Part shown: positions 75 to 56,725 of the stretch, piece after piece
Layout: every line of letters starts with the position of its first letter
How positions within the stretch are numbered: the first letter of the stretch is position 1
DNA from: Myxococcales bacterium
GTDB taxonomy: Bacteria > Myxococcota_A > Polyangia > Polyangiales > GCA-016699535
Reading direction: 5' to 3'
Assembly: GCA_020633325.1 (NCBI GenBank)
Contig: JACKDX010000001.1
Coordinates: 178,179 to 242,178, forward strand
Length of the DNA stretch: 64,000 bases
Notes under the pieces: generated by a model
What the model was told of the DNA's origin: nothing
Database searches by the model: none
The model's input: only the letters and a program-made list of their open reading frames with translations
Made by a program: the position numbers and the translations under genes

Positions 75-734
75 ATGAATGATAAATTGAACTATTTCAT
101 GTGTGGATTCTTGCTTTCAGGCGTGGCGATGGGCTGCGGGAGCGATTCGGACGGCAGTCATGAATCGCGCGAGATCGCTGCCAGTGACTTACAGCGTTCT
201 CTCGAGATAGAGGAGGGCCAGTGGATCAAGTCGCGCATCGTATATGAAGACGGCTCGCACGACGAAATCACCTTACGTGCCCAGGAGAAAGAGGGCGAGT
301 ACAGGTGGTTTGATGTGCATCAAGTCAGCAGTGCTTATGGCAACTTGGACTTACGTATTTTGGGCACGCCCGGGACCGTGGAAGATCCTGTCGGGCAAAT
401 CGCAGAGATCGAAGCAGACGTAGATACGGGAGATGCCTTCACGGATGAATTTTTGAGAGACTATTTGACGCGAAACGCCGCGACACAAATCATGTCGTTG
501 ATGGCTCGCCAATCGTTTTCGGCTATGGAGCGTGAAGAGGCCCCCATTGTCGTTCCCGCGGGCACTTTTTTCGGCTGCTACAAGCGGGATGAATCACTCG
601 TTCAGGACAATGGTGAGAGAGCGTTCCTGACCACGGTTTGGCGTCACCCCGCAGTGCCGTTCTCCGGCGTGGTGCTCGCCACCGACGCGGAGCAAAGCTA
701 CCGCCAAGAGCTCGTGGATTTCGGGACCGAATAA
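75..734 (+). CDS. putative lipoprotein, function unknown
   Basis: ORF 42..734. ATG at 75 is preceded by AAGGAG. N-terminus MNDKLNYFMCGFLLSGVAMGC|GSD has a signal peptide with a lipobox-like Cys. Confidence 0.5.
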   Translation: MNDKLNYFMCGFLLSGVAMGCGSDSDGSHESREIAASDLQRSLEIEEGQWIKSRIVYEDGSHDEITLRAQEKEGEYRWFDVHQVSSAYGNLDLRILGTPGTVEDPVGQIAEIEADVDTGDAFTDEFLRDYLTRNAATQIMSLMARQSFSAMEREEAPIVVPAGTFFGCYKRDESLVQDNGERAFLTTVWRHPAVPFSGVVLATDAEQSYRQELVDFGTE

Positions 735-788: not shown

Positions 789-1955
789 TCAAAAGTCGCC
801 CCGTTGGCAGTCGTAAGACACGACCACTTCACTGACTTCGCCACTTTTCACCTTGTCACAAGAAGCGCCGTGCAGCGTGACCGTCGTGGTGGCTGGATCG
901 TAGGTCCAGCCATCGACGGGTTCTTGGGTAAGTGCGTCCACGGATGCATCGAAGTAAACAAAAATCTCGGTTTCCGCATCCGGCACGTTGTCCTTTAACG
1001 TGTGGGTACAGCTCAAGGCCGCCGTTCCACCGATCGAATCTAGAGCCTCTTCCAACGCTGTCGTGCTCGTGGCAAGATAGTGCTTCTCAGTACCGCCGCT
1101 GGTTGCGATGGCAGACAGCAGTTTGGTATCGACTTCGTGAACATCTTGCGTAAAACCCACAGCAAACGTGCGCACGCTGGGTGAAAGCGCGAGCGCGGCC
1201 GAAGCCGCATTAGGCCCATTTCCATCACACGTTTCCTTGCCGTCGGTAATGAGCAACAGGGCGTGCTCGCGGCCAGTCTCCTTCCATGCGGCAGACTTTG
1301 CAATGCTGTCGATGCTTGCGCCGATCGAGGTTTCTTGAAACCCCGAGTTACACAAAAAGTCCTCATCTGCGTCATTTAAAAACGCATGAATGGCATCCAC
1401 ATCATCGCCCATGGGCACTTCAATGGTCCCTGCACTACATCCTTGGCCATCAAGGCATGCGGAAAAGGTCGCAAGGCCAAATCTAACTGTTCCTTTAAAG
1501 GCGGTGGTTAGCGCCACAATTGCCTGTTTGGCGATGTCCCACTTCTTGCCCTCTTCGGAAATGCCCTCGCCCATGGAGCCACTGCGATCCAGCAAGATCA
1601 TGACGTGCGGCGCTACCCGCTCGGGTCGAAACTCATTGGCGCAATCGCCACCAGCTGAACACATACCAAAGGGAACGCACCTCTCCTCAGCGGTCCCGGC
1701 ATCGGAGTCACAAGATGTGATCTTGGGATCCGTGCCGCAGATTTGCCCCCCTTCGCAGTTGCCATCAAGGGCCTTGCCCGTGCTGTCTAAGCAGCTGTCT
1801 TTGGCCATGCATTCAAAAGAAGCGCTGCCACATTTTAGGCCAGGGCGGCATTTCCTGTTTTTACACGCCTCACCCAAAAGGGCGCCGTCATTGGGTTTTG
1901 CGCATGCCAAGCCCAATGTGCAGGCCGCGACATAAGTTAAGAATTTGTAGTTCAT
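789..1955 (-). CDS. von Willebrand factor A (vWA) domain lipoprotein with Cys-rich N-terminal region
   Basis: ATG at 1955 with GAGGTG upstream. Lipobox LGLAC. MIDAS-like VMILLDRSGSMGE. About 20 Cys in the first 110 aa. Confidence 0.6.
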   Translation of the reverse strand: MNYKFLTYVAACTLGLACAKPNDGALLGEACKNRKCRPGLKCGSASFECMAKDSCLDSTGKALDGNCEGGQICGTDPKITSCDSDAGTAEERCVPFGMCSAGGDCANEFRPERVAPHVMILLDRSGSMGEGISEEGKKWDIAKQAIVALTTAFKGTVRFGLATFSACLDGQGCSAGTIEVPMGDDVDAIHAFLNDADEDFLCNSGFQETSIGASIDSIAKSAAWKETGREHALLLITDGKETCDGNGPNAASAALALSPSVRTFAVGFTQDVHEVDTKLLSAIATSGGTEKHYLATSTTALEEALDSIGGTAALSCTHTLKDNVPDAETEIFVYFDASVDALTQEPVDGWTYDPATTTVTLHGASCDKVKSGEVSEVVVSYDCQRGDF

Positions 1956-9817: not shown

Positions 9818-9836
9818 CGGCTGCTCTGAGATTGGC

Positions 9837-10946
9837 ATGAAGCAGTATTGGTTACTCAACCCAGGTCCCGTTAATACGACGGCTACGGTGAAACAAGCCG
9901 CACTCGCTGCAGATCTCTGTCATCGTGAACCGGAGTACAGCGCCCTCATGACCGAGGTGCGCCATAAGCTTTTGGAAGCCACCGGCATTGGCACCAAGGG
10001 CTATCAGACGGCCCTCATTGCGGGATCTGGCACCGCGGCGCTCGAGCTGTCCATCGCTTCCATTGTGCGGCCTCAACGCAAGCTTCTCGTGCTCAACAAT
10101 GGCGTCTATGGAGCACGACTCCTAAAAATGGCCCAAGCGCATGGCATCGATTGTAGAGATATCACCTCTCCCTGGCATCAGCCCCCCAGCGTCGATGCCG
10201 TCGAGCACGTCCTCAGGGAAGACGCCTCGGTTGATGCCGTTGCCTTGGTGCACCATGAAACCACTACGGGGCTCTTAAATCCCGTCGAGGCCATTGGAAG
10301 GCTTGCGAGGCGCTACGACAAAGTGTTTTTTCTCGATTCTGTCTCTGGGCTCGGGGGAGAGACTTTGGACATAGACGGATGGGGCGTGGATTTGGTAGCT
10401 GCGACCGCCAACAAATGCTTGCACGGGCTTCCCGGCGTTGCGTTCGTACTCGCCTCTGATCGGGGGCGTGCGCATGTCGCTGAGGTGCCGCCGCGCTCGG
10501 TTTACTTCGATTTACGCAATTATCTCGAGCAACAAGAGGCAGGAGCTGTGCCATTTACGCCATGCATCTCGGGCACATACACGCTTCTTCAGGCGCTCGA
10601 CGAGCTTGAGGCTGAAGGGGGAATCTCTCAGCGCATTGCTACGTACAGAGAGCGCTCAAGCTTGATCCGCCGTGAGTTTCAGGCACTGGGGCTAAGTCTG
10701 TATCTTGATGAAGCGTTGCTCTCAAATAGCATTACAACCTTTAAGCTGCCCAAAGGGCTCAGTTATGTATCGCTCCATGAGCGGCTCAAGCAGGAGGGGT
10801 TTGTCATTTACGCTGGACAGGGCAAGCTCGAGCATGAAGTATTCCGCATCGCTAACATGGGTCATGTGCCCATGGAGATCTATGTCAAGCTCGTAGATGC
10901 TTTACGCCACGTGTTACGCGATATCCAAAGCGTTGCCACCATATAG
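9837..10946 (+). CDS. phnW: class-V aminotransferase, 2-aminoethylphosphonate:pyruvate transaminase (PhnW)-like
   Basis: MKQYWLLNPGPVNTT, GSGTAALE, HHETTTGLLNP, the NKCLHGLPG PLP-lysine region and EGG..R..Y resemble Pseudomonas PhnW. The ORF-track 5' extension (9732-9836) overlaps the upstream gene and was dropped. Confidence 0.7.
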   Translation: MKQYWLLNPGPVNTTATVKQAALAADLCHREPEYSALMTEVRHKLLEATGIGTKGYQTALIAGSGTAALELSIASIVRPQRKLLVLNNGVYGARLLKMAQAHGIDCRDITSPWHQPPSVDAVEHVLREDASVDAVALVHHETTTGLLNPVEAIGRLARRYDKVFFLDSVSGLGGETLDIDGWGVDLVAATANKCLHGLPGVAFVLASDRGRAHVAEVPPRSVYFDLRNYLEQQEAGAVPFTPCISGTYTLLQALDELEAEGGISQRIATYRERSSLIRREFQALGLSLYLDEALLSNSITTFKLPKGLSYVSLHERLKQEGFVIYAGQGKLEHEVFRIANMGHVPMEIYVKLVDALRHVLRDIQSVATI

Positions 10947-11692
10947 AGATTGGCAATGACTACGGCAAACACCCAATAGCCAAGGTAGGCACGAGGCCAT
11001 GCTCCTATGCATAAGGCCGCTATCATCATGAGAAAATGATGGTGGGTGGGACCGACCCACTGCACACGTCGAAAACATAAATATCCCCCTGGGCAGCTCG
11101 AGCCCGTGGAGCGCTGCATCCAACGGACGTAGCTCACCAAAAGCGCGTAGCTCACCCTATCAAAAGCGTTCTTGGGTTCACTGGCGAAAGAGCCCAAGGT
11201 GTTATCGATAGAGCCCCGTTTGAGCCGCTGCTTGAGGTTGTCGACGACAGCGCTGTGCCACATAAAACTCGCGCCCGCAGGAAGAAAGATCACCAGCCAC
11301 TCGAAGGTCTTAGGCGTGTAGCCGAAGACTGAGATGCCGCTGCGGCCGAGGTGCACGACCATGCCAATGAGCACGCTAAATGCCGTCACTCCGTCTGCCA
11401 AGCCGTCAAAGATGCGGCCCCGCCAGTCCCCGCCTCCGTAACGACGCGCAAGCTCGCCATCGACGCAATCAAAGACCATCGCGAAGAAAAACAAACATCC
11501 GCCCAAGACGGGCCAGGGAAGCGGCGCTGCGTAGAACACGCCCGTGATGACGCCGAGGGCAGCCGTAAATAACGTCACTTGGTTGGCGGTGATGCCTCGA
11601 GGCCCGAGCCTTCGCGCGATCCAGCGGCCCAGGGGGCGACAGATGGCGGCATCCAACACCTCATCACGCACCGGCGCTTTCAGTCCGCGCAT
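10880..11692 (-). CDS. CDP-alcohol phosphatidyltransferase family membrane protein
   Basis: DCVDGELARRYGGGDWRGRIFDGLAD fits D-x2-DG-x2-AR-x8-G-x3-D-x3-D. Multi-pass hydrophobic protein. Confidence 0.8.
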   Translation of the reverse strand: MRGLKAPVRDEVLDAAICRPLGRWIARRLGPRGITANQVTLFTAALGVITGVFYAAPLPWPVLGGCLFFFAMVFDCVDGELARRYGGGDWRGRIFDGLADGVTAFSVLIGMVVHLGRSGISVFGYTPKTFEWLVIFLPAGASFMWHSAVVDNLKQRLKRGSIDNTLGSFASEPKNAFDRVSYALLVSYVRWMQRSTGSSCPGGYLCFRRVQWVGPTHHHFLMMIAALCIGAWPRAYLGYWVFAVVIANLYMVATLWISRNTWRKASTSLT

Positions 11693-12432
11693 GCGGCTTC
11701 CTTTTCCAGGGCCGGCGCAATCACCTCGCGCGCTCGAGTTAAGTCCTCTTCAAAGTCAATTTCCGTCCACGAGAAATCGTCGGCGCGCTCAACGCCCACA
11801 TGAACCACTTGGAAAAAGCGGTTAATCGCCGCTTCGTATTCGCTGTCTTTGCCGAACCCGACTTCAGTATCGTCGATGACCGTACGCAATAACGGCACAT
11901 CGTGACGACAGACCTTGAAGAAACCGACAGATTCTCCAATAAGATCATATGACTGAGAGGGATCCAATCTGCGCGCGATGGCTATGGCACGTCCTTTAGA
12001 GACGCCAATCATCATCTCTTCGCCGGTCTCAGAGGAGCGCGTATCGACCAACGCGCAATTGGGATAGCTGCTATCGCGAAGACGCATGAATAGACCGGGA
12101 CCATAGTATACATCGGCATCCATAAAAATGAGATCGTCGTCTCGAAGGGCACCTAGCGCGGACTTAAGCGAAAGCAAAGAGCCATGCCTGTAATCGGGGT
12201 TAAATACCCAGTCGATGGGGCGTGCAAAGGGAAGCTCTAGGACAGCCTTGCGCAGCATCTCAGATTGATGCCCCGTCACTATGGTGATGTGATCGATGCC
12301 TGCATGCTGATACGTACGGAGGTGCCTCTCAAGAAGCGATTCTTCAGCCACTTTTAACAAACACTTGGGAAGCGTTTCGGTGTAAGGAGCCAGGCGTTTT
12401 CCCATGCCGGCCGCCAATAAGACGACCTGCAT
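11680..12432 (-). CDS. LicC/PntC-like nucleotidyltransferase (cytidylyltransferase family)
   Basis: MQVVLLAAGMGKRLAPYTETLPKCLL has the canonical GxGxR. The ATG at 12432 shares one base with the upstream stop (TGATG). Confidence 0.7.
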   Translation of the reverse strand: MQVVLLAAGMGKRLAPYTETLPKCLLKVAEESLLERHLRTYQHAGIDHITIVTGHQSEMLRKAVLELPFARPIDWVFNPDYRHGSLLSLKSALGALRDDDLIFMDADVYYGPGLFMRLRDSSYPNCALVDTRSSETGEEMMIGVSKGRAIAIARRLDPSQSYDLIGESVGFFKVCRHDVPLLRTVIDDTEVGFGKDSEYEAAINRFFQVVHVGVERADDFSWTEIDFEEDLTRAREVIAPALEKEAACAD

Positions 12433-14144
12433 CAGCGCAATGAGGCCCAGACGCGTTTGTAATCGTCGAAGCTCCCGATCTCTGTCCATCCTTTATAGAT
12501 ATCGACCGCATGAACATCGCCGCCCTGATCCACGATGTCCTGTAAGACATCTGTGAGTTTGGCATCCTGAACACGCTCGGCTTCGTGATAGGGTTTTGCT
12601 GCGGGTTTCTTTAGCGCCGAATGCCAAGACTCTCTGAATATGCGGCAACCATGTTCGGTAAGCATCATCATGCCTACAAACTCTCCACTAGCCTTGTCCG
12701 GCTGAATCGAGGTGCCAATTTGCGTCACGCGACTCGGTGCATCAGAAGTGAAAAATCGGTCCGTAGCCTTATCCGCCCTGGGTACATCCAAGCTGACCAA
12801 GTCACGCTTACTATGGTCGGATCGCTCTGTGACCGACCTATCCACTGCGATGGTAATATCAGAGGGTGAGCGCAGTAATTTCTCCAAAACGCTGCGCTCA
12901 AAGAGCACATCTCCATAAAGCACTACCACGCGTTTGCTTAGCTCCTTGTCGGCCTTGAAAAGACTGACGGCCTCGCCCGTGTCTTTATAGTCATCATTGT
13001 CGTAGGTGCGAATATTTGGGACATCAATGCGATCTTTAAGATAACCCCGCACCACCACAATATCTTTAATGCTACAGCTATTGAGGACCTCGATCTGTCG
13101 CTCTAAAAGCGTCTTTCCGCGGATATCCAACATGGCACGGGGCCGATCCTCGATGAGCGTGCCCAGCTCAGCTTCATAGCCGGCATCCAAAATGACTGCA
13201 GTGATCGCGGCGCCATCTGCAGGCAAGTATGCCTTCTCCTCCGCCTTCATGGTGGAGACGCCTATGATTTCATAGACGTCGGTAAGCGGAACGACCATAT
13301 CATCGACGGATCCGGTCGAACCCGCTTTACGCATGGTGCTCAGCGTGTGTCGCATCGCTTTGATGGAGCTTCTGATGGCATGATTCGCACAAATAATGAG
13401 CTTAAAGCCTGCCTCGTGAAGTTGGGCCACGGTTGCAGTCTTGTAGGTAGTCGGCACGCAGACCAACGGTGTGTCGCGATCCCATTGCTTGGCAAAGCTT
13501 AGAATCTCGTCGGGTGTCTCGGACTTGGAGTGAATCAGCACCATGTCGGCGCCCGCATCCGCATAACTGCGCGCACGCTTGAGCGACTCATCCATGCCCC
13601 ATCCAGCGATCAACGCTTCTGTACGCGCAATCACCGCGAAATCTGATGAGCGTCGCGTATCAAGAATGGCGCGGATCTTACCCGCGTGTTCTTCGATCGT
13701 GGCAAGTTCCCGCTTGACGCCCGCGTAGAAAGAACAGCGCTTAGGAAAACTGTTATCTTCGATGCAAACGGCCGCCACTCCGGCCGCTTCGTACTGCCGG
13801 ACCATGTGAATCACGTTGATAGCGTTTCCGTAGCCGTTGTCGCAGTCAGCAATCACTGGGATATCCGTGGCTTCCACCATTTGGCGGGCATATCCGAGGT
13901 TGTCAGCCATGGTGAGAATATTGGCGTCGGGAATGCCGTAGCTTGCGGAGATCTCAAAACCGCTGGCCCAAACCCCGTCGTAGCCTGCCTCTTTGACCAG
14001 TTTGGCCGATAGGCCACTATGGGCGCCCGCGATGACGATTGGTCCGGACGCTTTGAGTAACTGACGAAGCTTCGTTGCACCTTGCATACTACCACCTAGA
14101 TTAGGCCGGCTGGCCGGCCGAAGTTGAGCCAAGGAGGATGACAC
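12432..14144 (-). CDS. PEP-mutase-like (ICL/PEPM superfamily) domain fused to a C-terminal degenerate nucleotidyltransferase domain
   Basis: Aligns along its whole length with Mytilus PEP mutase as recalled (DCDNGYG, IARTEALIAGWG, LIHSK, EKAYLP), but the active-site loop is EDNSFPKRCS. The C-terminal half has an NTP_transferase-like fold starting AVILDAGYEAELG. The likely start is the ATG at 14087, with GGTGG upstream. Confidence 0.7.
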   Translation of the reverse strand: MSSSLAQLRPASRPNLGGSMQGATKLRQLLKASGPIVIAGAHSGLSAKLVKEAGYDGVWASGFEISASYGIPDANILTMADNLGYARQMVEATDIPVIADCDNGYGNAINVIHMVRQYEAAGVAAVCIEDNSFPKRCSFYAGVKRELATIEEHAGKIRAILDTRRSSDFAVIARTEALIAGWGMDESLKRARSYADAGADMVLIHSKSETPDEILSFAKQWDRDTPLVCVPTTYKTATVAQLHEAGFKLIICANHAIRSSIKAMRHTLSTMRKAGSTGSVDDMVVPLTDVYEIIGVSTMKAEEKAYLPADGAAITAVILDAGYEAELGTLIEDRPRAMLDIRGKTLLERQIEVLNSCSIKDIVVVRGYLKDRIDVPNIRTYDNDDYKDTGEAVSLFKADKELSKRVVVLYGDVLFERSVLEKLLRSPSDITIAVDRSVTERSDHSKRDLVSLDVPRADKATDRFFTSDAPSRVTQIGTSIQPDKASGEFVGMMMLTEHGCRIFRESWHSALKKPAAKPYHEAERVQDAKLTDVLQDIVDQGGDVHAVDIYKGWTEIGSFDDYKRVWASLR

Positions 14145-14188: not shown

Positions 14189-14941
14189 CTAAAGAGTTTT
14201 CACCGCACCCGCTATCAAGCCGCTTTCAATGAAGCCCGGCAGCCGCTCGCACAACCCTGTCACGCGCCCAGCTGATAGAGGCAGCTTCTGTGTTTTAAAC
14301 GCATGCTCGATGCCTTCTTTGGCAGACCAGTCAGGATGCGCCAGCCACACTTCGATCACTTCTCGCTCGAGCGGGTCTAAAGCCACCGTCTCGACCTTTT
14401 GCGTGCGTGCATTCCGAAACACTCCCAACACCCACTGGCATGCGCCATAGCAAGAAGCCTCATCCAGATGATGTACGGCGTGACCGACTTCTAAGACGCG
14501 AAGCGTAGGATTGACATAGGCGGGACGATCGAAAGCAAAGTCTGCTGTCGCTTTTGGAAGGCCAGCTTTTTGATCCGCCACAGACCAACACGTCGCCTCG
14601 TAACGTAAAAGGTCGCGCGCCACGCGCGGCACATCCGCCGCGTCTTTCCATTGTATCTCGAGGTGTTCGGCAAACTCTACTACAACGTCTCGAATGTATC
14701 GGCTGACCGGGCCGGTCTCATGGAGATACCGCGCCATGTGCTCAGAGAATACCGCGGGCCCCAGCACTCGCTCCGTCCTCGGCAGGCCTCGGCGAATCAT
14801 GTCACATAGTCTATGACGTACCATGGCGCGATAAAGCGCCCACGATGACAGGGAAGCAGCGGGCGCATCAGCATGCTCTATGTCTGGATGTTTGGTAAGA
14901 CATAGCTCGGCAATTCGCTTCTGTTGTGAGTCCAAGCTCAT
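14189..14941 (-). CDS. DUF2063-family protein, putative MNIO partner (BufC/HvfC/MbnC-like role)
   Basis: LYRAMVRHRLCDMIRRGLPRTERVLGPAVFSEHMARYL pattern. The start overlaps the MNIO stop (ATGA at 14938-14941). Confidence 0.6.
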   Translation of the reverse strand: MSLDSQQKRIAELCLTKHPDIEHADAPAASLSSWALYRAMVRHRLCDMIRRGLPRTERVLGPAVFSEHMARYLHETGPVSRYIRDVVVEFAEHLEIQWKDAADVPRVARDLLRYEATCWSVADQKAGLPKATADFAFDRPAYVNPTLRVLEVGHAVHHLDEASCYGACQWVLGVFRNARTQKVETVALDPLEREVIEVWLAHPDWSAKEGIEHAFKTQKLPLSAGRVTGLCERLPGFIESGLIAGAVKTL

Positions 14942-15810
14942 AAAGATTTCGTAATTACCGATGCTTCGACCTTAAAAACCGTTGCGTAGATATCCTGAAG
15001 ACGATGAATTTCTTGCACAAGCAGGGAGAACGCAGGAAACTTTTCATCGCGCTCCAAAAGAACGGGCTTCGGCCCAAGACGCCTAAGTGCGTAATCCAAA
15101 AGCGCATAGACAGGCTCTATGATGGGCTCTGCATGGGTATCGATGATGGGACCATTTTTTTGGGTAAGGTGGCCCGCAACATGAAGCTGGGCCACGCGGT
15201 GTTTTGGAATACGGTCAATGTAGGCATACGGATCAAAGCCATGATTGACGCTGTTAACATACACGTTATTAACATCCAACAGTATCAATGCATCAGCTCT
15301 ATCGACGACCTGTAAAAGAAACTCGACTTCGGACATCGTGGGCGGACTCAAGTTGGCGTAATAGCTGACATTCTCGATAGCGATCGGACATTCTACGGCG
15401 TCCCTTAACTCTCGAACGCGGGCTACAGCGGTGAGTATCGCATCTTCAGTAAAAGGTAACGGCAACAGCTCATGCAATATGCGGCCATTGGCTTCCGTAA
15501 AGCATAAGTGCTCGCTATGCCAAGGCGCGCGAATGTCGCGGGCCAAAAACTGGCGCAGTTGCGCAGTGTACCTGGGATCAAAGCGCTGGCTATTTCCGAG
15601 CCCCAAGGTCAAGCCATGGGTCAAAAGGGGCCAACGCGCGAGCGCGTGCTCCAAGATGTTGGCGTAGCGTCCACCGCGCTCTAGGTAATTCTCCGGATGA
15701 ATTTCCAGAAACTTCAGGCCATCGGGCGGAGCATCAAACAAATCGTTCGCTAGCGGATAGCGAAGCCCCAGCCCTATCCCGTTAAGGCGTTCGTTTCGAG
15801 GAGCCGCCAT
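14938..15810 (-). CDS. DUF692 / multinuclear non-heme iron oxidase (MNIO, MbnB/BufB-like) family protein
   Basis: GIGLGLRYPL...FLEIHPENY, THGL, WHSEHLCF, IENVS, LLDVNNVY, LHVAGH, IDTH and LERD. Confidence 0.75.
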   Translation of the reverse strand: MAAPRNERLNGIGLGLRYPLANDLFDAPPDGLKFLEIHPENYLERGGRYANILEHALARWPLLTHGLTLGLGNSQRFDPRYTAQLRQFLARDIRAPWHSEHLCFTEANGRILHELLPLPFTEDAILTAVARVRELRDAVECPIAIENVSYYANLSPPTMSEVEFLLQVVDRADALILLDVNNVYVNSVNHGFDPYAYIDRIPKHRVAQLHVAGHLTQKNGPIIDTHAEPIIEPVYALLDYALRRLGPKPVLLERDEKFPAFSLLVQEIHRLQDIYATVFKVEASVITKSL

Positions 15811-15834
15811 AGATTTGCCTGCGGGTTAAACTGA

Positions 15835-15869
15835 TACATCCGTGCCCGCGCGCGGCGGATACGGATGTA
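15835..15869 (-). promoter_or_regulatory. intercistronic stem-loop between the precursor ORF and the MNIO gene
   Basis: Perfect 9-bp inverted repeat TACATCCGT / ACGGATGTA flanks a GC-only core containing the palindrome CCGCGCGCGG. It lies about 25 nt after the precursor stop codon. Confidence 0.4.
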
Positions 15870-15893
15870 CCTGACCGAGCATGATACAAAAAC

Positions 15894-16136
15894 CTACTGA
15901 GCTTCTTCAGCTGCCGGCGCCTCACCCTCGTTCATCGCGCCACAAGAACCAGCTCCGCAGGAGCCTTCTGCTGCGCCTTCTTCCATGGCAGCACCCTGAG
16001 CGCCCGGAGCGGGGGTCGCTTCCGCACCAGTGGTTGTTTCAGTCGATGCGGCGTCGTCAGCACTGTCGCCACAACCAATCCCCGCTAGGCCGAATGCCGC
16101 GGTTGCCATCACGATAAGCTTGTTCTTCATATCCAT
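15894..16136 (-). CDS. 80-aa putative RiPP precursor with signal/lipobox peptide and EGSCGAGSCGA core
   Basis: GGAGG lies 9 nt upstream of the ATG at 16136. Sequence: MDMKNKLIVMATAAFGLAGIGC|GDSADD...EGSCGAGSCGAMNEGEAPAAEEAQ. It sits directly upstream of the MNIO gene on the same strand. Confidence 0.6.
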   Translation of the reverse strand: MDMKNKLIVMATAAFGLAGIGCGDSADDAASTETTTGAEATPAPGAQGAAMEEGAAEGSCGAGSCGAMNEGEAPAAEEAQ

Positions 16137-16259
16137 GTTTCCTAACCTCCAGTATATGTTTCCAATGTGAGTGACGATCTCCGATCGCCTCGTCCTCATA
16201 TGCCGGAACATCGTGATCCGTCGGATGTGGAACGATCGGTGCAGATTAGAACGAAGCGC

Positions 16260-18089: not shown

Positions 18090-19619
18090 TCACTCATAAC
18101 GAAGACCTTCTACCGGAGGCAAGCGCGATGCCCACCAGCTTGGCAAGAGCGTGGCGGTGGCGCAAATTGTGAGTGCAATGACAACCGTAAGCGCGAATTC
18201 TATCCAGCTGGTTCGCACGGGCAAATGATCGACCAAATACACCTTGGGATCCAACGGAAACTTGTACATGGAGAGATAGGCGCATACGCCGCCCCCAAGT
18301 ACTAAACCACTGAAAGTTCCCGCCAATCCGATCATCGCGCCTTGAAGACTGAACATTGCCAGGATGCTTCTCTGCTTCGCGCCCATGGCTTTGAGAATTG
18401 CGATTTGGCGTTTTCGTTCCAATACGATCATGATCAAAGTTGCCACCACATTAAACGCGGCCACCAAAATGATTGTCGCAATGACCAGACTCAGTGCAAC
18501 TTTTTGAATTTCCAAAGCCGTAAACAGATTATGATTTAACTCTCTCCAATCCATGGTGTGATAGGGACCGTGTCCCATCTGCCGTTCAAGTTTTCGTGCG
18601 ATCTGCGGGGCTTTGTCGAGATGATGCAAACGCACTTCCACACCAGTGACCGTGTCGCCTTGGTCAAAAAATTTCTGAGCGGCATACAGATCAATATAGA
18701 CTAACCGACTGTCGTATTCCTGAAACCCAGCTTCGAAGATGCCGATGACCTTGAACTTCTGGGTTCTCGGCGTCATGCCGGAGGGCTTCCATATGCTGAT
18801 ATCGAGCCCCGTTAAAGGAGAGTAGACCGTGACCTCGTCCCCTACGGTCATCCCTAAACTACGCGCTAAGGTATTGCCCACCACAATCCCTGGAAGCGGC
18901 CCCGAGGTTTTGGAGCGGTCGACCTCTTGCTCCGCATCATCGAGCAGCGCATTCTCCGTTTGAGCGTTCATGGGTAGGGTCGCATCGCTTTTTTTTAGCG
19001 ATGCCTCCGCATGGGATGGAGTGGGGACCGTTACTCCCCGCTGTGCCAACGGGACCTTCTTTGGCCTTTCGGCAATAGCCTCTTTTTGGGAAGTCCCTGG
19101 GGAATTCCCCTCGATTTCACGTAGGATTTCATTGAAATCAACTTCCTCCCCATCTTCGGGTCCGATTTCCCGGGCAAATGCTGCGGGTTTGGCGCCCTTT
19201 TGCCTGAGCCCGTGAAGGGAGCCGCGAATCATCTGCTTTGGCAGATCAAGCACCTTTTGCATGCGTTCCGGATCTATGCCTTTGACTAGCACACCAGCCA
19301 CCCGATCGCCTTTGGCCAGCATCATATCGTCAATACGAAACGGAGCTGCGCCGGCCACTTCTTTAAGGCGTTCGGCTTTGGCAATCACCGCTCGGTACTC
19401 TTCAAAGTCCAGCCCGTATTTCAAAAGGAGCACGTGTGCATTCACCCCCAGCACCTTGTTGCGAAACTGCTCCTGAAATCCCGATGTAATGGACATCACC
19501 GAAAGGAGAGCGGCCACACCGAGCGCGACGCCTGTCACAGCAACTGCCGAAATTACGGAAAGCGTGGTGCGCTTTTTGGCCCGTAGGTAGCTATAGCCAA
19601 GTTGCCATACATAGTGCAT
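18090..19619 (-). CDS. LolC/LolE-like FtsX-family ABC permease with a long periplasmic-domain insertion
   Basis: N-terminal YLRAKKRTTLSVISAVAVTGVALGVAALLSVMSITSGF and C-terminal ILKAMGAKQRSILAMFSLQG. At 509 aa it is about 100 aa longer than typical LolC/E. Confidence 0.7.
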   Translation of the reverse strand: MHYVWQLGYSYLRAKKRTTLSVISAVAVTGVALGVAALLSVMSITSGFQEQFRNKVLGVNAHVLLLKYGLDFEEYRAVIAKAERLKEVAGAAPFRIDDMMLAKGDRVAGVLVKGIDPERMQKVLDLPKQMIRGSLHGLRQKGAKPAAFAREIGPEDGEEVDFNEILREIEGNSPGTSQKEAIAERPKKVPLAQRGVTVPTPSHAEASLKKSDATLPMNAQTENALLDDAEQEVDRSKTSGPLPGIVVGNTLARSLGMTVGDEVTVYSPLTGLDISIWKPSGMTPRTQKFKVIGIFEAGFQEYDSRLVYIDLYAAQKFFDQGDTVTGVEVRLHHLDKAPQIARKLERQMGHGPYHTMDWRELNHNLFTALEIQKVALSLVIATIILVAAFNVVATLIMIVLERKRQIAILKAMGAKQRSILAMFSLQGAMIGLAGTFSGLVLGGGVCAYLSMYKFPLDPKVYLVDHLPVRTSWIEFALTVVIALTICATATLLPSWWASRLPPVEGLRYE

Positions 19620-33011: not shown

Positions 33012-33614
33012 CTACTTTGAAAAATCAAAGCCCAAAAGTCGCGCAGTCACGCGGGTGGACTGGCCCGAGATCTTCATTTCCATCTGGGAATCAATAAAAA
33101 CAGGGCCCACGGTGGGGCAGTAAATGGTATCCACCCGCCGGCTAAGATCCGCGCTTGTTTCTCGCACCTGCGTGCAATGTGCAAATCTGCCCGCTGGCGT
33201 GTCGATGGAGCGCCACATCGATAGGACCTTTGCCCGACCGATGGGAGACTGCCAGGTGGCACCACGAACAATAGGGTTCCTAAGAAGCCAGCCTGTCCCA
33301 TCTGCACGCCAGATTCCGGCATTGGTTACCTCGTAAGCCACCGGCGTACTGCCCGCACCCACTTCGGCGCGAGTGCCGTGCACTCCCACGACCCTGCTGA
33401 TGGCCAAGGTATTCAGGCCGACGCCCGTGTCCACATCATAGCTCCATACGGAGCCCAGTCTGAGCGGATAAAGAATTGCCGCCGTGATTTTAGTGGGTGT
33501 GGACTGAGTGGGTGGTTTGCTTGCGCCGCACGCCGTGCCGATTACCACTAAAAATAGAATGCCGAGATGCAGCGTATGTGTGGTTGAAACCCTGGCTTGC
33601 ATAAGAACGTTCAT
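33012..33614 (-). CDS. putative lipoprotein
   Basis: LGILFLVVIGTAC|GASKPP. Confidence 0.5.
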   Translation of the reverse strand: MNVLMQARVSTTHTLHLGILFLVVIGTACGASKPPTQSTPTKITAAILYPLRLGSVWSYDVDTGVGLNTLAISRVVGVHGTRAEVGAGSTPVAYEVTNAGIWRADGTGWLLRNPIVRGATWQSPIGRAKVLSMWRSIDTPAGRFAHCTQVRETSADLSRRVDTIYCPTVGPVFIDSQMEMKISGQSTRVTARLLGFDFSK

Positions 33615-51200: not shown

Positions 51201-51472
51201 TGCGTCATTTTCCGGAGCTCCAAAACGTGATCGTGATGGGTGTTGGCGTCACAAAGCGTCCCACATGCTATGATGAAGACGAAGAAACCGATCCCTATTT
51301 AGGTACACGCACCGTTGTCAATGCCTCGAACGGCGGGGGCTATCAGCTCGTCGCCCTTGCCGGCGGTGACGCCGAGCGCGCAACCGGACAAGTGATCGGA
51401 TCCATCACGAGGGATCTTGCGCCCCCTGCGGCTATCACTCGGGTTATGTCTAGGGTATCCTCGGTTGAATGA
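48245..51472 (+). CDS. pilY1: PilY1-like tip adhesin with N-terminal vWA domain
   Basis: Signal peptide. MIDAS MLLIDTSGSMER (48371...). PilY1-type GTNDGILHAF and ELWGFIPP motifs. 1075 aa. Confidence 0.75.
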   Translation: MKFGSNLVFFSCAFVLALGPKAHAQVTIPDLREVRPGVMLLIDTSGSMERKGGCVCVTPGCIECYPTCGDSSVSERNRWANLTEILTGSWGDNFYCVAKDRRTAEFDSQYDSNYFIPHHALPLDLEQTDDGLVDVYIERVKFGMMTFDNIGTATDEAPLVPKSNFQTAGFLLKSAGPQGMYSYGEPKTLTFPGCATEYMVDLGARGPGMQPGALISVGLGAADFLIINTEVQEGIKHVRPFGGTPIAAMLDDARYYYGNHPDIVLDDYINCRDHYVVLVTDGYPDQDYRDDRFDCDGLDAFGNPTFSCPYQLPAEIAADLCDYNAVSGTCEGPVKGVFVVGFNVDAEATDTLNDIALAGGTEQALLAETPDELRAKLADALNAIASDATTRSSPAFVSPSDSGTQGQYQLQTGFQVGATGEPWTGVMERRRFTCNPATLEMEAQPISTAENDRFEEVLNNRSAPRNLYTVISGNNTSALTGTITNDTLESFDAANVNITSKRLGAGNNNTARRNEIIGWVHGDDGTARQGKRLGDIYHSSPVVVGPPRADIEDQSYNLFRQRAEVANRPVVAYVGTNDGILHAFSIEDYDDSGTPIEGGTELWGFIPPLLLPKLDSMVTARQLMLDSTPVAKDVFFSRMPSATPDASAYHSVLITGFRGGAKGFVALDVTDPLNPTFLWQFADSDMGFTYGRPAIGQAVVNFNGVVQERAIALLPGGTGSIDTLGSLSGPIGCKSNGKGSPPVNQGTTKARSHQRCWKQKEGRQLYVVDVATGTLLKHFTHAIWNAPVTGTPALFTEEVGTVATKAYVTDIDGVLWRIDLSSSNTGDWDAEPFHDIFWDSLPLAGQPAYDPPVLSVDNDGNTVILQASGNTDVLDGIVENRVVSLTEHVSYGVAEVTWEAEVNWEIRLEAGEVVTGPLDLFDGKVYFGTFQSPGLLTALLDACDIGQSRVWGVHYTEGALSALPLTQPTKLPNPAIEYPAGSDTWVRHFPELQNVIVMGVGVTKRPTCYDEDEETDPYLGTRTVVNASNGGGYQLVALAGGDAERATGQVIGSITRDLAPPAAITRVMSRVSSVE

Positions 51473-51987
51473 GAGCCACAGCACTGCTCGCACTATGCGT
51501 CACGCTCGTAAGTGGCGCATGCCAGAGCGAGAACAGCGCACCCCGAGCGACCCCACCGCCCAAGCGCGTAACGAGTCAAAAGCCTATCGCAGTCCCCCAG
51601 GACCTTTTGTTTAACGCCAAGGGAGAACTGGTCGAATCGGAGGACAGCGTGGCAGGTCTTAAACTGCCTCGAGGGCTTCGTTTGCTCCGGCGAGCCGATC
51701 GGCTTGCCGTCTACGAAACCAGTTTGCCCATGGAAAAAATCCAGAGATATTTTGGCCCACGCTTATTCACTGGAGAAGTTGAGCAACAAGGTCAGCGAGT
51801 GATCTATCGCGCGGCAATACCAAAAGGTGTCAAGGGCGGCGTCGTGAAGTTGGACGTGAGATTGTACCCCGCCGCCAATGGCCAGCACCGTGTGGAAATC
51901 CGGAAGCTACGTCCCATGCCTCAATCACCCTTGCCTGACCCCAAAGTTCAAGCGTTGCTGAAAGAACAGCAAAAGTATATGCAGTAA
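51469..51987 (+). CDS. lipoprotein translationally coupled to pilY1
   Basis: ATGA overlap at 51469-51472. LALCVTLVSGAC|QSE. Confidence 0.5.
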   Translation: MRATALLALCVTLVSGACQSENSAPRATPPPKRVTSQKPIAVPQDLLFNAKGELVESEDSVAGLKLPRGLRLLRRADRLAVYETSLPMEKIQRYFGPRLFTGEVEQQGQRVIYRAAIPKGVKGGVVKLDVRLYPAANGQHRVEIRKLRPMPQSPLPDPKVQALLKEQQKYMQ

Positions 51988-51990
51988 CGC

Positions 51991-52410
51991 ATGCAGCACC
52001 GTGTGGGGCTCTTCATGGCCTTCAGCGTCTTGCTCGTGGTAGGAGCGCTGGCATCGCCAAGCGAAGCCGACGCCGACGGTCGAACTATCGAGCAAGAAGT
52101 TCGCCGTATACAGCGAGAATCTGTCGACAAAACTCCCGTTACACCCGCATTAAATCACGCTCTTTCCGCGCTCCGCCGCAGCGAGCGCTATCTCAGGCGG
52201 AAAAATTTTCGGGCCGCAATCGCGGCGAGACGCACCGCATGGGCAGCGCTCGAACTCGCCTCAAGACAGCTCGCTTACGAAACGGCTCAGCGCGTGCGAC
52301 TTAGAGCCTACCGAAGTATGGCTGCTTCCATCAACGAACGTCGTGCTGCCAGACGGGCCCTTGAAAGCGCTCTATCGCAACGGGCACGGTTAGGACCGCG
52401 CGAACCATGA
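51991..52410 (+). CDS. secreted helical protein (DUF4398-like impression)
   Basis: Signal peptide FSVLLVVGALASPSEA. Ala/Arg-rich helices. Confidence 0.4.
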   Translation: MQHRVGLFMAFSVLLVVGALASPSEADADGRTIEQEVRRIQRESVDKTPVTPALNHALSALRRSERYLRRKNFRAAIAARRTAWAALELASRQLAYETAQRVRLRAYRSMAASINERRAARRALESALSQRARLGPREP

Positions 52411-53444
52411 GATGCCTAACCGCTGCATTGTTATTTCTCGGCCTTATGGGTTGTGTATCCACGATGGGACCAAAGGCAGACCAGTTTTTGGATCGCCGGG
52501 CTGCCCCGAGCAGCCAACACGCTGAAAGGCATGCACTAGATATTGTCAAGCGTGCGGACCATGCGTGGCAGGATGCACAACAAGCACACGATGCGGATAA
52601 TCCGGAAGAAGCCTCTGAGCATCTCAACCGGGCCCTGATTTTTTTGGAAGCCGCTATTATTGAAACGCAGCGCATTGAGCTCGAGCAGCTGGCATCCACC
52701 ATGACCACACGATCTACACGTAACAAGTCCCAAGCCATGCGAGATAATGCCGCGAGGTACACGATCGAGCAGGAGATAGCGCAACGATTGGCGGCAGCAA
52801 TCGCCGATACCGAAGTGGCTCGATCTGTGGCGCTCGCCGAGTCCGATGAGTCCGAGCTGAGTGCGGCATCACTGGAAGCTGCTCGCATTTTGCACGCAAA
52901 GGCGGATCTGACCTGTGCTTCAGCCACCGCACTTAGTGCATCCGCAAGCATGCTTGAGCGCGCCCGGACATTGCTCCGCGAATCTCGAAGTGTTTCCTCG
53001 TTATCGCACGCTGAACAGGCCCTGCGCGCCTGCGAACTCGCCATGGCCCAGGGCCGCACCCTTCAAGATGGCGCCTCTATTGAGGAAGCGCATTCGCTCC
53101 TAGAAGCCGCGAGAGCGGCCGGCTTTGAAGCGCAGGCGATGCCAAATGGCGTGGTTCTTCTTCTACAGGACCTCACGGATGGTAGTAGCAGGGAGTCCAG
53201 CGCACGTGTTCGACGGGTACTTGCGCGCGTGGCGCGACTTGCTCTGGGGTTTCCCAAAGGCGAGTTGCTGATACAGCCAGCCACCGGCGGCGGTATCGAC
53301 CAAACGCAAGGCACACGCATTCGATCTATATTGATATCGGAGGGCGTAGATCGGAATCGGCTGCGGATACAAGGCGCTGCTCACGATCCGCAGCCCTCCG
53401 CAACTAAGATCCGATTTCCGGCATACGGAGGCCTGGACCTATGA
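52407..53444 (+). CDS. lipoprotein with helical N-terminal region and degenerate OmpA-C-like C-terminus
   Basis: ATGA overlap. LFLGLMGC|VST lipobox. The C-terminal ...VVLLLQDLTDGSS...LIQPATGGG...IRSILISEGVDRNRLRIQG follows the OmpA_C layout but lacks the usual peptidoglycan-binding residues. Confidence 0.4.
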   Translation: MRCLTAALLFLGLMGCVSTMGPKADQFLDRRAAPSSQHAERHALDIVKRADHAWQDAQQAHDADNPEEASEHLNRALIFLEAAIIETQRIELEQLASTMTTRSTRNKSQAMRDNAARYTIEQEIAQRLAAAIADTEVARSVALAESDESELSAASLEAARILHAKADLTCASATALSASASMLERARTLLRESRSVSSLSHAEQALRACELAMAQGRTLQDGASIEEAHSLLEAARAAGFEAQAMPNGVVLLLQDLTDGSSRESSARVRRVLARVARLALGFPKGELLIQPATGGGIDQTQGTRIRSILISEGVDRNRLRIQGAAHDPQPSATKIRFPAYGGLDL

Positions 53445-55252: not shown

Positions 55253-56725
55253 CTACTGTGCTGGAGACAATGAGGCGCGCTGTGTGAGCACCTGAAGTAC
55301 CTCTCCTGCCACCTTTCCAACCGTCATATTGGGATCCCAGTGTTTGCCCTTGACCGGCGTTGCATCGGTCTTAACTTTCTGCACTGACGGAATATCGTTC
55401 TTGGTGCCTTTGCGCTCCAACACCCGCAATGCAATGACGCGTTCCCACCAGTTTTTGGAACCCAGCATGCCTCGAAGCTTCGAGGTTGGAAGCGGCGACA
55501 GTTGACCTATGCGCTTCGCATAACCTTCGAGCTCCTCAGGCTCATAGTTCACATCACCTTGATGGGGTAACTTGTCGAGAAATTCCGAGAGCACTTTCTC
55601 GCCGCCGATGGCCAAGACTAGCTCGCCCGCACGCCACCGTTCGCGAGCGTTCGAGGCGCTTTGGACCAGCGGCCAAAGCCGAGCAACAGTTTTGGGGCTG
55701 CGCACATCGCTCAACCGATCAAACGCGTAATCCCTCACTTTTGTAGGATTTGCATTATTTAGTGCGAGTTCAAGCAAGCGATCGAGTTGATCAGCCGACG
55801 CCTTCCCTTCAAGCGCCGCAAGCGCACGCCACCGTCGTTCCACCATCGCAGGCTCTTGCGAATTGATCGATGCAATCTGCAGCAATCGCTCCGCTACTAC
55901 GCGCTGGTCCGCTACGGAGCTCATTGCGGGCAAAGCGCCCGTGGTAATAAAAACCTCGCGGTGATGCAGAGCAGCACGTTGTACGTCTGGACGCTTGACG
56001 GTTTGCCCTCGGTCTTTGGCCTGTTCAAGGATTCGCGTCTCGAGCCACACCAAAAATTCTTTGCTCTCCATCTCACGCTCGATCTCGACGAGGCGTTTTG
56101 CCGCCTGTGCCTTGGTAGCGTCGTCTCCGACTTGAGCGATTAGCTGGGAAAGCTTGATCAGAGCCATTTGCGGCATGCGGGGATCAAGCGCTGCTACCAA
56201 CTGAGCACCCGCAGATGCTCCCAATGCTCGAATAATCTGCTCTGCGCTAAACTTCCCGGCCAGGCTTCTCCCGTTAAAGTCGCCTGCCAGCCATTGTACG
56301 ATGGAAGTTGACAGATCCCGTCGCACTTCTTCGGATGCTAGCGGAACCAATATAAACGCCGCATCTTTGGCCCGCACTTCAAGTGCCGCCGGTCCACTTT
56401 CATCTGCGGTAGCCTTAGTAGTGCCATGCATGAGTGTCTTTAATTGCTCTGCAACATCATGAATGATTTGCGGGCTATCTTTATCCGTAAGCTTGCGCAG
56501 GGTCTGCTCGAACTCCGCCATGCCGTCCACGTCTTGCCGGTTCATCTCGACTAACGCCACCAAGGCTCTGGCGCGAAGCTTCACATCGTATTTCGGTGTG
56601 AGCGCGACGGATACTATTTTACCGGGTCCCTTGACGGTCGACTTCCACGTCTGGATATCGTTGGAATCAACCCTGCAGGCACCCAACGTCATGCCTACGA
56701 GAACCCATATTTGCCATACGCGCAT
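55253..56725 (-). CDS. HEAT/ARM-like repeat lipoprotein
   Basis: AGGGGA lies before the ATG at 56725. VLVGMTLGAC|RVD. Helical repeats throughout. Confidence 0.45.
   Translation of the reverse strand: MRVWQIWVLVGMTLGACRVDSNDIQTWKSTVKGPGKIVSVALTPKYDVKLRARALVALVEMNRQDVDGMAEFEQTLRKLTDKDSPQIIHDVAEQLKTLMHGTTKATADESGPAALEVRAKDAAFILVPLASEEVRRDLSTSIVQWLAGDFNGRSLAGKFSAEQIIRALGASAGAQLVAALDPRMPQMALIKLSQLIAQVGDDATKAQAAKRLVEIEREMESKEFLVWLETRILEQAKDRGQTVKRPDVQRAALHHREVFITTGALPAMSSVADQRVVAERLLQIASINSQEPAMVERRWRALAALEGKASADQLDRLLELALNNANPTKVRDYAFDRLSDVRSPKTVARLWPLVQSASNARERWRAGELVLAIGGEKVLSEFLDKLPHQGDVNYEPEELEGYAKRIGQLSPLPTSKLRGMLGSKNWWERVIALRVLERKGTKNDIPSVQKVKTDATPVKGKHWDPNMTVGKVAGEVLQVLTQRASLSPAQ

Follow-up and report, generated by a model that had tools for sequence, protein, structure and literature searches.

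Does the small gene that lies directly upstream of an MNIO gene in this Myxococcales window (the window being the whole stretch of 64,000 nt that was analysed) encode a RiPP precursor that ends up tethered to a membrane, as the original prediction proposed from a lipoprotein-type signal? We give a probability of about 0.8 to the reading that the product of the gene is the precursor to a metal-binding peptide modified by the MNIO and anchored by a lipid, a putative thiooxazole metallophore of the captophorin/oxazolin/bufferin kind made in the manner of a DAG-RiPP. The accompanying claim, that lipidated MNIO products had not been described, does not stand. About 16% of Buf2 bufferins carry predicted lipoprotein signal peptides (Antoine et al. 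2025, PMC12452194), and a PNAS paper of 2026 defines 'DAG-RiPPs' as RiPP-lipoprotein hybrids and demonstrates triacylation of DybA and NedA (PMC13056109). Lipid-anchored MNIO products are an established class, and the window locus opens no new category. Its use is as a clean test case provided by nature: the peptide is minimal, its single site has two Cys residues, its acidic tether is free of Lys, and its lipobox is invariant. The features on which the analysis draws are collected in Table 1.

Table 1. Features of the RiPP locus and its surroundings, numbered from the first nucleotide of the window.
Feature	Position	Strand	Basis or remark
AEP aminotransferase	9834..10946	+	
CDP-alcohol phosphatidyltransferase	10880..11692	-	
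Second nucleotidyltransferase	11680..12489	-	
PEP mutase fused to nucleotidyltransferase	12432..14144	-	
DUF2063/HvfC-like partner, 250 aa	14189..14941	-	PF09836, 35.2 bits, above the 27.2 cut-off
MNIO (DUF692) peptide-modifying enzyme, 290 aa, no signal peptide	14938..15810	-	PF05114, E 9e-90
Stem-loop of about 16 bp in the precursor-MNIO spacer	15833..15871	-	Read from sequence; fold
Precursor peptide gene	15894..16136	-	ORF; identical P0001; homologous small ORF directly upstream of MNIO in 70/80 related loci
Core motif EGSCGAGSCGA, residues 57-67, predicted MNIO target	15936..15968	-	Weak NF050137 match
Acidic low-complexity linker, residues 23-56, GDSADDAASTETTTGAEATPAPGAQGAAMEEGAA	15969..16070	-	Composition
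Cys22 (TGT), +1 Cys of lipobox G-I-G-C	16071..16073	-	Predicted diacylglyceryl site and mature N-terminus
Signal peptide, residues 1-21: n-region MDMKNK, h-region LIVMATAAFGLAGIG	16074..16136	-	Sequence; PROSITE PS51257 rule
Shine-Dalgarno-like GGAGG	16146..16150	-	9 nt upstream of the first ATG (16136); read directly
LolC/E-type lipoprotein-release permease	18090..19619	-	TIGR02212, 312 bits, cut-off 362

The list of ORFs and their translations gives an 80-aa peptide on the minus strand, with the stop codon lying within the coordinates of the gene. Its full sequence is MDMKNKLIVMATAAFGLAGIGCGDSADDAASTETTTGAEATPAPGAQGAAMEEGAAEGSCGAGSCGAMNEGEAPAAEEAQ; the translation opens with MDMKNKLIVMATAAFGLAGIGC, continues as GDSADD and closes with EGSCGAGSCGAMNEGEAPAAEEAQ. 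The features ascribed to it at the outset, namely a basic n-region, an h-region, the tetrapeptide G-I-G-C, an acidic mature part and two more Cys residues, were all found in the sequence. NCBI starts the same gene at Met3, which yields P0001, an identical protein of 78 aa from a metagenome-assembled genome labelled 'Myxococcales bacterium'. Because the GGAGG sits 9 nt upstream of the first ATG, the sequence favours Met1 (MDMKNK) over Met3 as the probable start, and the precursor of the closest relative, L001, likewise begins MDMKKK. Counted from Cys22, the mature part is 59 aa long, carries a net charge of -12, and contains neither Lys nor Arg and not a single Leu, Ile, Val, Phe, Trp or Tyr; it is almost certainly a disordered chain of low complexity. 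A Pfam search with the precursor gave no match, and a direct search with the 80-aa peptide recovered only itself and one relative with 75% identity. No sigma-70 promoter was picked up by a scan of the region upstream of the precursor, and terminator-like matches were no more frequent than expected by chance. The only names that public sources give to members of the family are 'hypothetical protein' and 'uncharacterized low-complexity protein'; no annotation identifies a member as a RiPP precursor or as a lipoprotein.

The n-region supplies two Lys residues within the first 7 positions (K4 and K6, or K2 and K4 when counted from Met3), and the h-region comprises 15 uncharged residues with no polar c-region after it. 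We implemented the PROSITE PS51257 rule ourselves as {DERK}(6)-[LIVMFWSTAG](2)-[LIVMFYSTAGCQ]-[AGS]-C, where the Cys must fall at position 15-35 and the first 7 residues must include a Lys or Arg, and the peptide conforms to it from either start codon (A-G-I-G-C22, or C20). This is a permissive rule, which 26 of the window's 1878 candidate start sites (1.4%) pass, several of them clearly spurious, so the pattern by itself is weak evidence for a lipoprotein. Measured against the canonical E. coli-type box L(-3)-[A/S/T](-2)-[G/A](-1)-C, the window peptide is off consensus, with Gly at -3 and Ile at -2, and only the Gly at -1 fits. The canonical E. coli consensus is typical, not obligatory. Other plausible lipoproteins in the window have similarly relaxed boxes (SGAC, AMGC, GTAC). 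A second lipoprotein that had been cited as a parallel, the ORF at 75..734, was confirmed; it reads MNDKLNYFMCGFLLSGVAMGC followed by GSDSDG, with VAMGC at the box. Members of the precursor family also gave weak N-terminal matches to several NCBIfam lipoprotein models. More ORFs with plausible relaxed lipoboxes lie at 789..1955 (-), 33012..33602 (-), 51469..51987 (+), 52407..53444 (+), 55253..56725 (-) and 59325..61142 (+); the boxes across these six are GLAC, GTAC, SGAC, LMGC, LGAC and LSAC, and the ORF at 789..1955 encodes a von Willebrand factor type A (VWA) domain protein with a plausible lipoprotein signal.

It is the conservation of the Cys in relatives that lifts the lipobox reading above chance. 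Since the peptide query had returned one close relative only, relatives were sought through the MNIO, for which 6453 homologues were found at E<=1e-40; an alignment of MNIO homologues was followed by a scan of species-representative genomes, which gave 80 loci (L001-L080). Nearly all carry Myxococcota or unclassified delta-proteobacteria labels (Polyangiales, Sandaracinaceae), with MNIO identities of 49-67%. In 70 of the 80 loci the MNIO gene is immediately preceded by a small, signal-bearing ORF with Cys motifs, for a total of 73 precursors; two more precursors were partial or missed by the filter, one (in L046) was apparently frameshifted, and six loci had none directly upstream. Three loci (L070, L078 and L079) have two tandem precursor genes before one MNIO, each with its own lipobox.

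When the sequences were anchored on their first Cys, the +1 Cys was invariant in 74/74 precursors (entropy 0). It falls at residue 21-26 in all of them except L075, where position 32 is an effect of a start-codon choice that retains a 9-residue upstream extension, and it always follows immediately after the h-region. Position -1 is Gly in 40 precursors and Ala in 34, and nothing else, while position -3 in the family can be T, A, G, S, L, V or M. Variation is seen at -4 to -2 and from +2 to +13, and 27 different lipobox tetrapeptides occur among the 74 precursors; the Cys itself is encoded by TGC in 57 relatives and by TGT in 16. A11 and C22 are the only invariant columns of a MAFFT alignment of the precursors (A2), ahead of the core Cys residues. 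Larger searches gave the same pattern. When 5.8 billion proteins were searched with a profile, 61 homologues came up, all unnamed or 'hypothetical', and in each of the 61 the h-region runs into [AGS]-C; exhaustive searching of 1.84 billion representatives with HMMER yielded 71 clusters at 50% identity, 66 of which have a lipobox. Of the five exceptions, one is frameshifted, one has Ser at the position of the Cys (P0238, which otherwise has a clade-type signal peptide), and three are weaker-scoring sequences that lack the Cys. These three (P0216, P0224 and P0237) have signals that end in AxA-type sites of the signal peptidase I kind (PLAA/S, TANA/A, AADA/G), a difference that one would predict for a Cys whose role is in processing by signal peptidase II. 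The original prediction had named conservation of the Cys at the cleavage site of orthologous precursors as a check, and on all three samples the outcome is clearly positive. The assignment of the window peptide as a predicted lipoprotein is strongly supported.

An ordinary Sec substrate of signal peptidase I, cut after Ala18 (G-L-A/G) or Gly21 and released as a soluble periplasmic peptide with Cys22 free, in a disulfide or acting as a metal ligand, is an unlikely alternative to this. It leaves unexplained why the Cys is fixed at the end of the h-region in 74/74, 61/61 and 66/71 sequences while its distance to the core varies widely (mature lengths among relatives range from 52 to 115 aa), and the relatives whose signals do end in AxA-type sites have no Cys. 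Small residues at -3 and -1 would permit the cleavage, and the lipobox is non-canonical at -3 and -2, but the signal is without the polar c-region. Although HvfA, the founding member, uses signal peptidase I, and its non-motif N-terminal Cys residues pair into a disulfide (PMC11252979), a disulfide at Cys22 would have no partner here, because both other Cys residues are predicted modification sites.

Beyond the anchor, the preferred reading of a lipidated, MNIO-modified peptide draws on the two genes that follow the precursor. The MNIO is a clear member of PF05114 (300.9 bits, cut-off 25) and aligns with PDB 3BWW (E 1.5e-54); it scores 279.3 bits against the HvfB equivalog NF003818 and 266.9 bits against the BufB equivalog NF050167, under the respective cut-offs of 360 and 310. 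The start of the DUF2063 gene overlaps the MNIO stop by 4 nt. Its product reaches 43 bits with the HvfC model, far under the cut-off of 142, and no solved structure matched it by sequence. Neither protein has a signal peptide in its sequence, and modification must therefore precede export. Across the 80 loci the conserved unit is precursor, MNIO and DUF2063, with the DUF2063 gene directly after the MNIO gene in 69, while the other neighbours change; the order of the genes, their assignment to families and the fact that the lipobox Cys never varies in the anchored precursors are direct observations. No DoxX gene was found near the window operon, DoxX is not in the conserved module, and the related loci share no fourth conserved gene after DUF2063. 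The locus combines an MNIO, a DUF2063/PME1 partner and a Cys-rich precursor with Cys-Gly dyads, the set of genes that characterises captophorins, and it has the adjacent MNIO and DUF2063 genes of the HvfA family. The lipoprotein signal on a RiPP-cluster precursor that characterises DAG-RiPPs is indicated here by the PS51257 rule together with conservation.

At the specificity sites the window MNIO has R17-Y18 and D255-E256, whereas the FonB Lys-Cys group and 3BWW have R-R and D-F. The specificity residues of the Lys-Cys group are Arg15-Arg16 and Phe250 in FonB (PMC12668002). Through the ERD motif of 3BWW, D255 aligns with Asp249 of FonB, the proposed catalytic base. In 30 MNIOs of the clade, R17 and D255 are invariant; position 18 is H, Y or Q, and position 256 is Q, D, N, E or G. 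The differing sites argue for a putative separate specificity subgroup, not for exclusion from the captophorin class.

Apart from Cys22, the only Cys residues of the window peptide are Cys60 (15957..15959) and Cys65 (15942..15944), in tandem GSCGA units. The HvfA-family domain model NF050137 scores 14.1 bits over residues 48-67, below its 19.5 cut-off, and the NF050188 equivalog scores 11.7 bits against a cut-off of 95; at E<=1, NF050137 matches 14 of 44 clade members, with a best E value of 2.9e-7. With its scores under the cut-offs, the window peptide stands outside the formal NCBIfam HvfA/HvfB/HvfC families. Precursors of this kind, which fall below NCBIfam cut-offs and are labelled 'hypothetical' or 'low-complexity', are missed by genome annotation. 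The window peptide lacks repeated E-G-K-C-G motifs and has EGSCG-AGSCG instead. Throughout the clade, 266 of 290 core Cys residues are preceded by Ser and 7 by Lys, 232 of the 290 are followed by Gly, and the commonest core 5-mers are EASCG (98) and EGSCG (93); true EGKCG units occur in a few members (L026, L012 and L016). E-[A/G]-S-C-G is thus a variant of the oxazolin/HvfA repeat EGKCG in which Ser takes the place of Lys.

Work on related enzymes bears on this variant. NgoA, the characterised precursor of gonophorin, contains EGSCG units, and the supplementary dataset of PMC12668002 has EGSCG among its repeat types; a literature search for EGSCG and EASCG strings in the main texts of papers gave nothing relevant. 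For FonBC the Lys of the motif may be Ala, Arg or Thr instead; the enzyme left substrates with a charged residue after the Cys unprocessed, and it requires two repeats (PMC12668002), which is the number in the window peptide. Residues 23-56, the linker, align with regions of the relatives that bear additional E-A-S-C-[GS] units, and the window peptide is therefore a minimal, single-site version.

It is quite improbable that the product is a small acidic lipoprotein which the MNIO leaves unmodified, and which would bind metal through the plain thiolates of its CxxxxC site or serve some other role. Such a reading would suit a precursor under the HvfA-domain cut-off, a weakly HvfC-like partner and MNIO specificity residues unlike those of the characterised enzymes, yet the precursor-MNIO-DUF2063 order is kept in about 70 of the 80 loci while other neighbours change, and E-[A/G]-S-C-G lies one residue away from EGKCG, with both EGSCG and EGKCG on record in NgoA and in the three clade members named above, respectively. 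Most improbable of all is that Cys22 itself is the MNIO target, heterocyclised before export with lipidation blocked: its G-C-G context resembles the Cys-Gly dyad preferred by these enzymes, but the preceding residue is Gly or Ala and not Ser, half of the relatives have Lys after the Cys, where FonBC rejects a charged residue (PMC12668002), and the lipobox Cys of DybA and NedA is lipidated, not heterocyclised (PMC13056109).

For the favoured lipid-anchored MNIO product, we infer the modification chemistry, lipidation, localisation and bound metal as follows. In the cytoplasm, the MNIO and its DUF2063 partner would turn Cys60 and Cys65 into 5-thiooxazoles (-4 Da each). The modified peptide would then be exported by Sec, Lgt would attach diacylglycerol to Cys22, signal peptidase II (LspA) would cleave between Gly21 and Cys22, and Lnt would N-acylate Cys22. 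The expected product is a 59-residue triacylated peptide composed of a lipid anchor, an acidic disordered tether of roughly 35 residues and a C-terminal head with two heterocycles, which would probably bind Cu(I). Because the precursor, the MNIO and the partner all score below the HvfA, HvfB, BufB and HvfC cut-offs, the proposed chemistry is extrapolated from relatives.

The residues that follow the lipobox Cys suggest where such a peptide might go. In E. coli, the retention signal is Asp at +2. In M. xanthus, Lys at +2 directs inner-membrane retention and Ala at +7 directs export to the matrix (PMC3222651). With Gly at +2 and Asp at +7, the window peptide has no +2 Lys, +7 Ala or +2 Asp signal, and Lol-dependent transfer to the outer membrane would be the default expectation under rules that come from M. 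xanthus and E. coli and not from this lineage. A LolC/E-type permease is encoded in the window, and the organism therefore has a Lol pathway. The +2 residue divides the 73 relatives, with Lys in 34 (typically C-K-S-D-D) and Gly in 31 (C-G-G-G or C-G-D); by the M. xanthus rule the 34 with Lys would stay in the inner membrane, which would place sister peptides on different membranes. Every clade member examined apparently uses the lipoprotein route, and relatives differ mainly at this sorting residue.

Several features set this case apart: a Myxococcota clade whose repeats are Ser-Cys and not Lys-Cys, a lipobox on every member examined, different MNIO specificity residues, no DoxX, and the +2 Lys/+2 Gly split. 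It is conceivable, although we regard it as doubtful, that the Myxococcota peptides form a separate, obligately lipidated subfamily of Ser-Cys thiooxazole peptides with its own MNIO pocket and no DoxX partner, in which the anchor replaces other membrane coupling and +2 Lys or +2 Gly sets the inner or outer membrane. If this were true, outer-membrane forms such as the window peptide could be shed in vesicles or shared among cells. The locus makes two questions addressable: whether a metallophore of this kind acts at the inner membrane, at the outer membrane or in vesicles, and how MNIO pockets adapt to Ser-Cys in place of Lys-Cys substrates.

Among known systems, NedA of Neisseria dentiae has an SPII signal, EGKCG repeats, an MNIO and a partner, and was isolated triacylated and with -4 Da per motif (PMC13056109). 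The window locus resembles NedA/lipo-NedABC in its small SPII-signal precursor, in the Cys-Gly motifs near the C-terminus, in the signal-less MNIO with a DUF2063-type partner, and in the presumed order of cytoplasmic modification, Sec export and lipidation of the +1 Cys. NedA, from Pseudomonadota, carries three EGKCG Lys-Cys motifs, whereas the Myxococcota peptide of the window has one EGSCG-AGSCG Ser-Cys pair and, unlike NedA, a long acidic Lys-free tether; triacylation of NedA was shown by experiment, while that of the window peptide is predicted. Chryseobasins, bufferins and oxazolins all include SPII-type members (PMC13056109), and a survey counted 74 MNIO-partner clusters in Myxococcota (PMC12668002).

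A Sec precursor, 5-mers of the form x-G-x-C-G and an MNIO with a DUF2063/PME1 protein are shared with HvfA/HvfBC of Haemophilus influenzae, with Buf_EGKCG (PMC11252979, PMC12452194) and with gonophorin and fontiphorin (PMC12668002). Oxazolin and gonophorin contain 5-thiooxazoles and bind copper (PMC12668002), and 5-thiooxazole chemistry is now assigned to oxazolin, gonophorin, fontiphorin and bufferins (PMC12668002 for captophorins); a 5-thiooxazole copper ligand would be common to oxazolin, the captophorins and, by prediction, the window peptide. HvfA is soluble, is cut by signal peptidase I and has DoxX in its operon, whereas the window peptide has a predicted lipobox and no DoxX nearby, scores under the NCBIfam HvfA cut-offs, and is paired with an MNIO that reads R-Y/D-E in place of the R-R/D-F of the Lys-Cys group. 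Buf2 bufferins (PMC12452194) are likewise MNIO-modified, Sec-exported, copper-related peptides for which lipobox anchoring is predicted, but they are folded domains with 6 or 12 Cys residues and Cys-Lys motifs, in contrast to a disordered low-complexity chain with two core Cys residues. With DybA/DybH of Dyadobacter crusticola the window family shares an invariant extra Cys; that of DybA proved to be its lipobox Cys, and DybA was the first MNIO product shown to mature through the lipoprotein pathway (PMC13056109). DybH differs in being an MNIO of the ChrH subfamily that forms a macrocycle and a hydantoin on a CPACGMG motif, and DybA is no thiooxazole metallophore.

A stem-loop occupies the spacer between the precursor and MNIO genes. 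The 96-nt stretch that holds it has a minimum free energy of -32.1 kcal/mol (z = -2.0), and in 63 of 68 related loci this spacer holds comparably strong hairpins, at a median z of -4.0 against mononucleotide shuffles. Possible roles of the hairpin are those of an attenuator or of a 3' mRNA stabiliser by which the precursor-to-enzyme ratio would be set.

A gene set of the 2-aminoethylphosphonate type spans 9834..14144, beginning 45 nt downstream of the RiPP operon; its composition suggests phosphonolipid or phosphonoglycan synthesis. On the other side, the LolC/E-type permease sits two genes upstream of the precursor and has 509 aa against a model of 411 positions, the extra sequence falling in its N-terminal/periplasmic part. 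The phosphonate genes, an amidase gene and the permease gene were considered as parts of the system and rejected, as L001 alone shares this arrangement and the conserved module has no fourth gene. Compared with L001, the window locus shows 67% identity for the MNIO and 37% for the DUF2063 protein, and 84% for PEP mutase, 89% for LolC/E and 71% for the amidase; between these two genomes the RiPP genes diverge faster than their neighbours.
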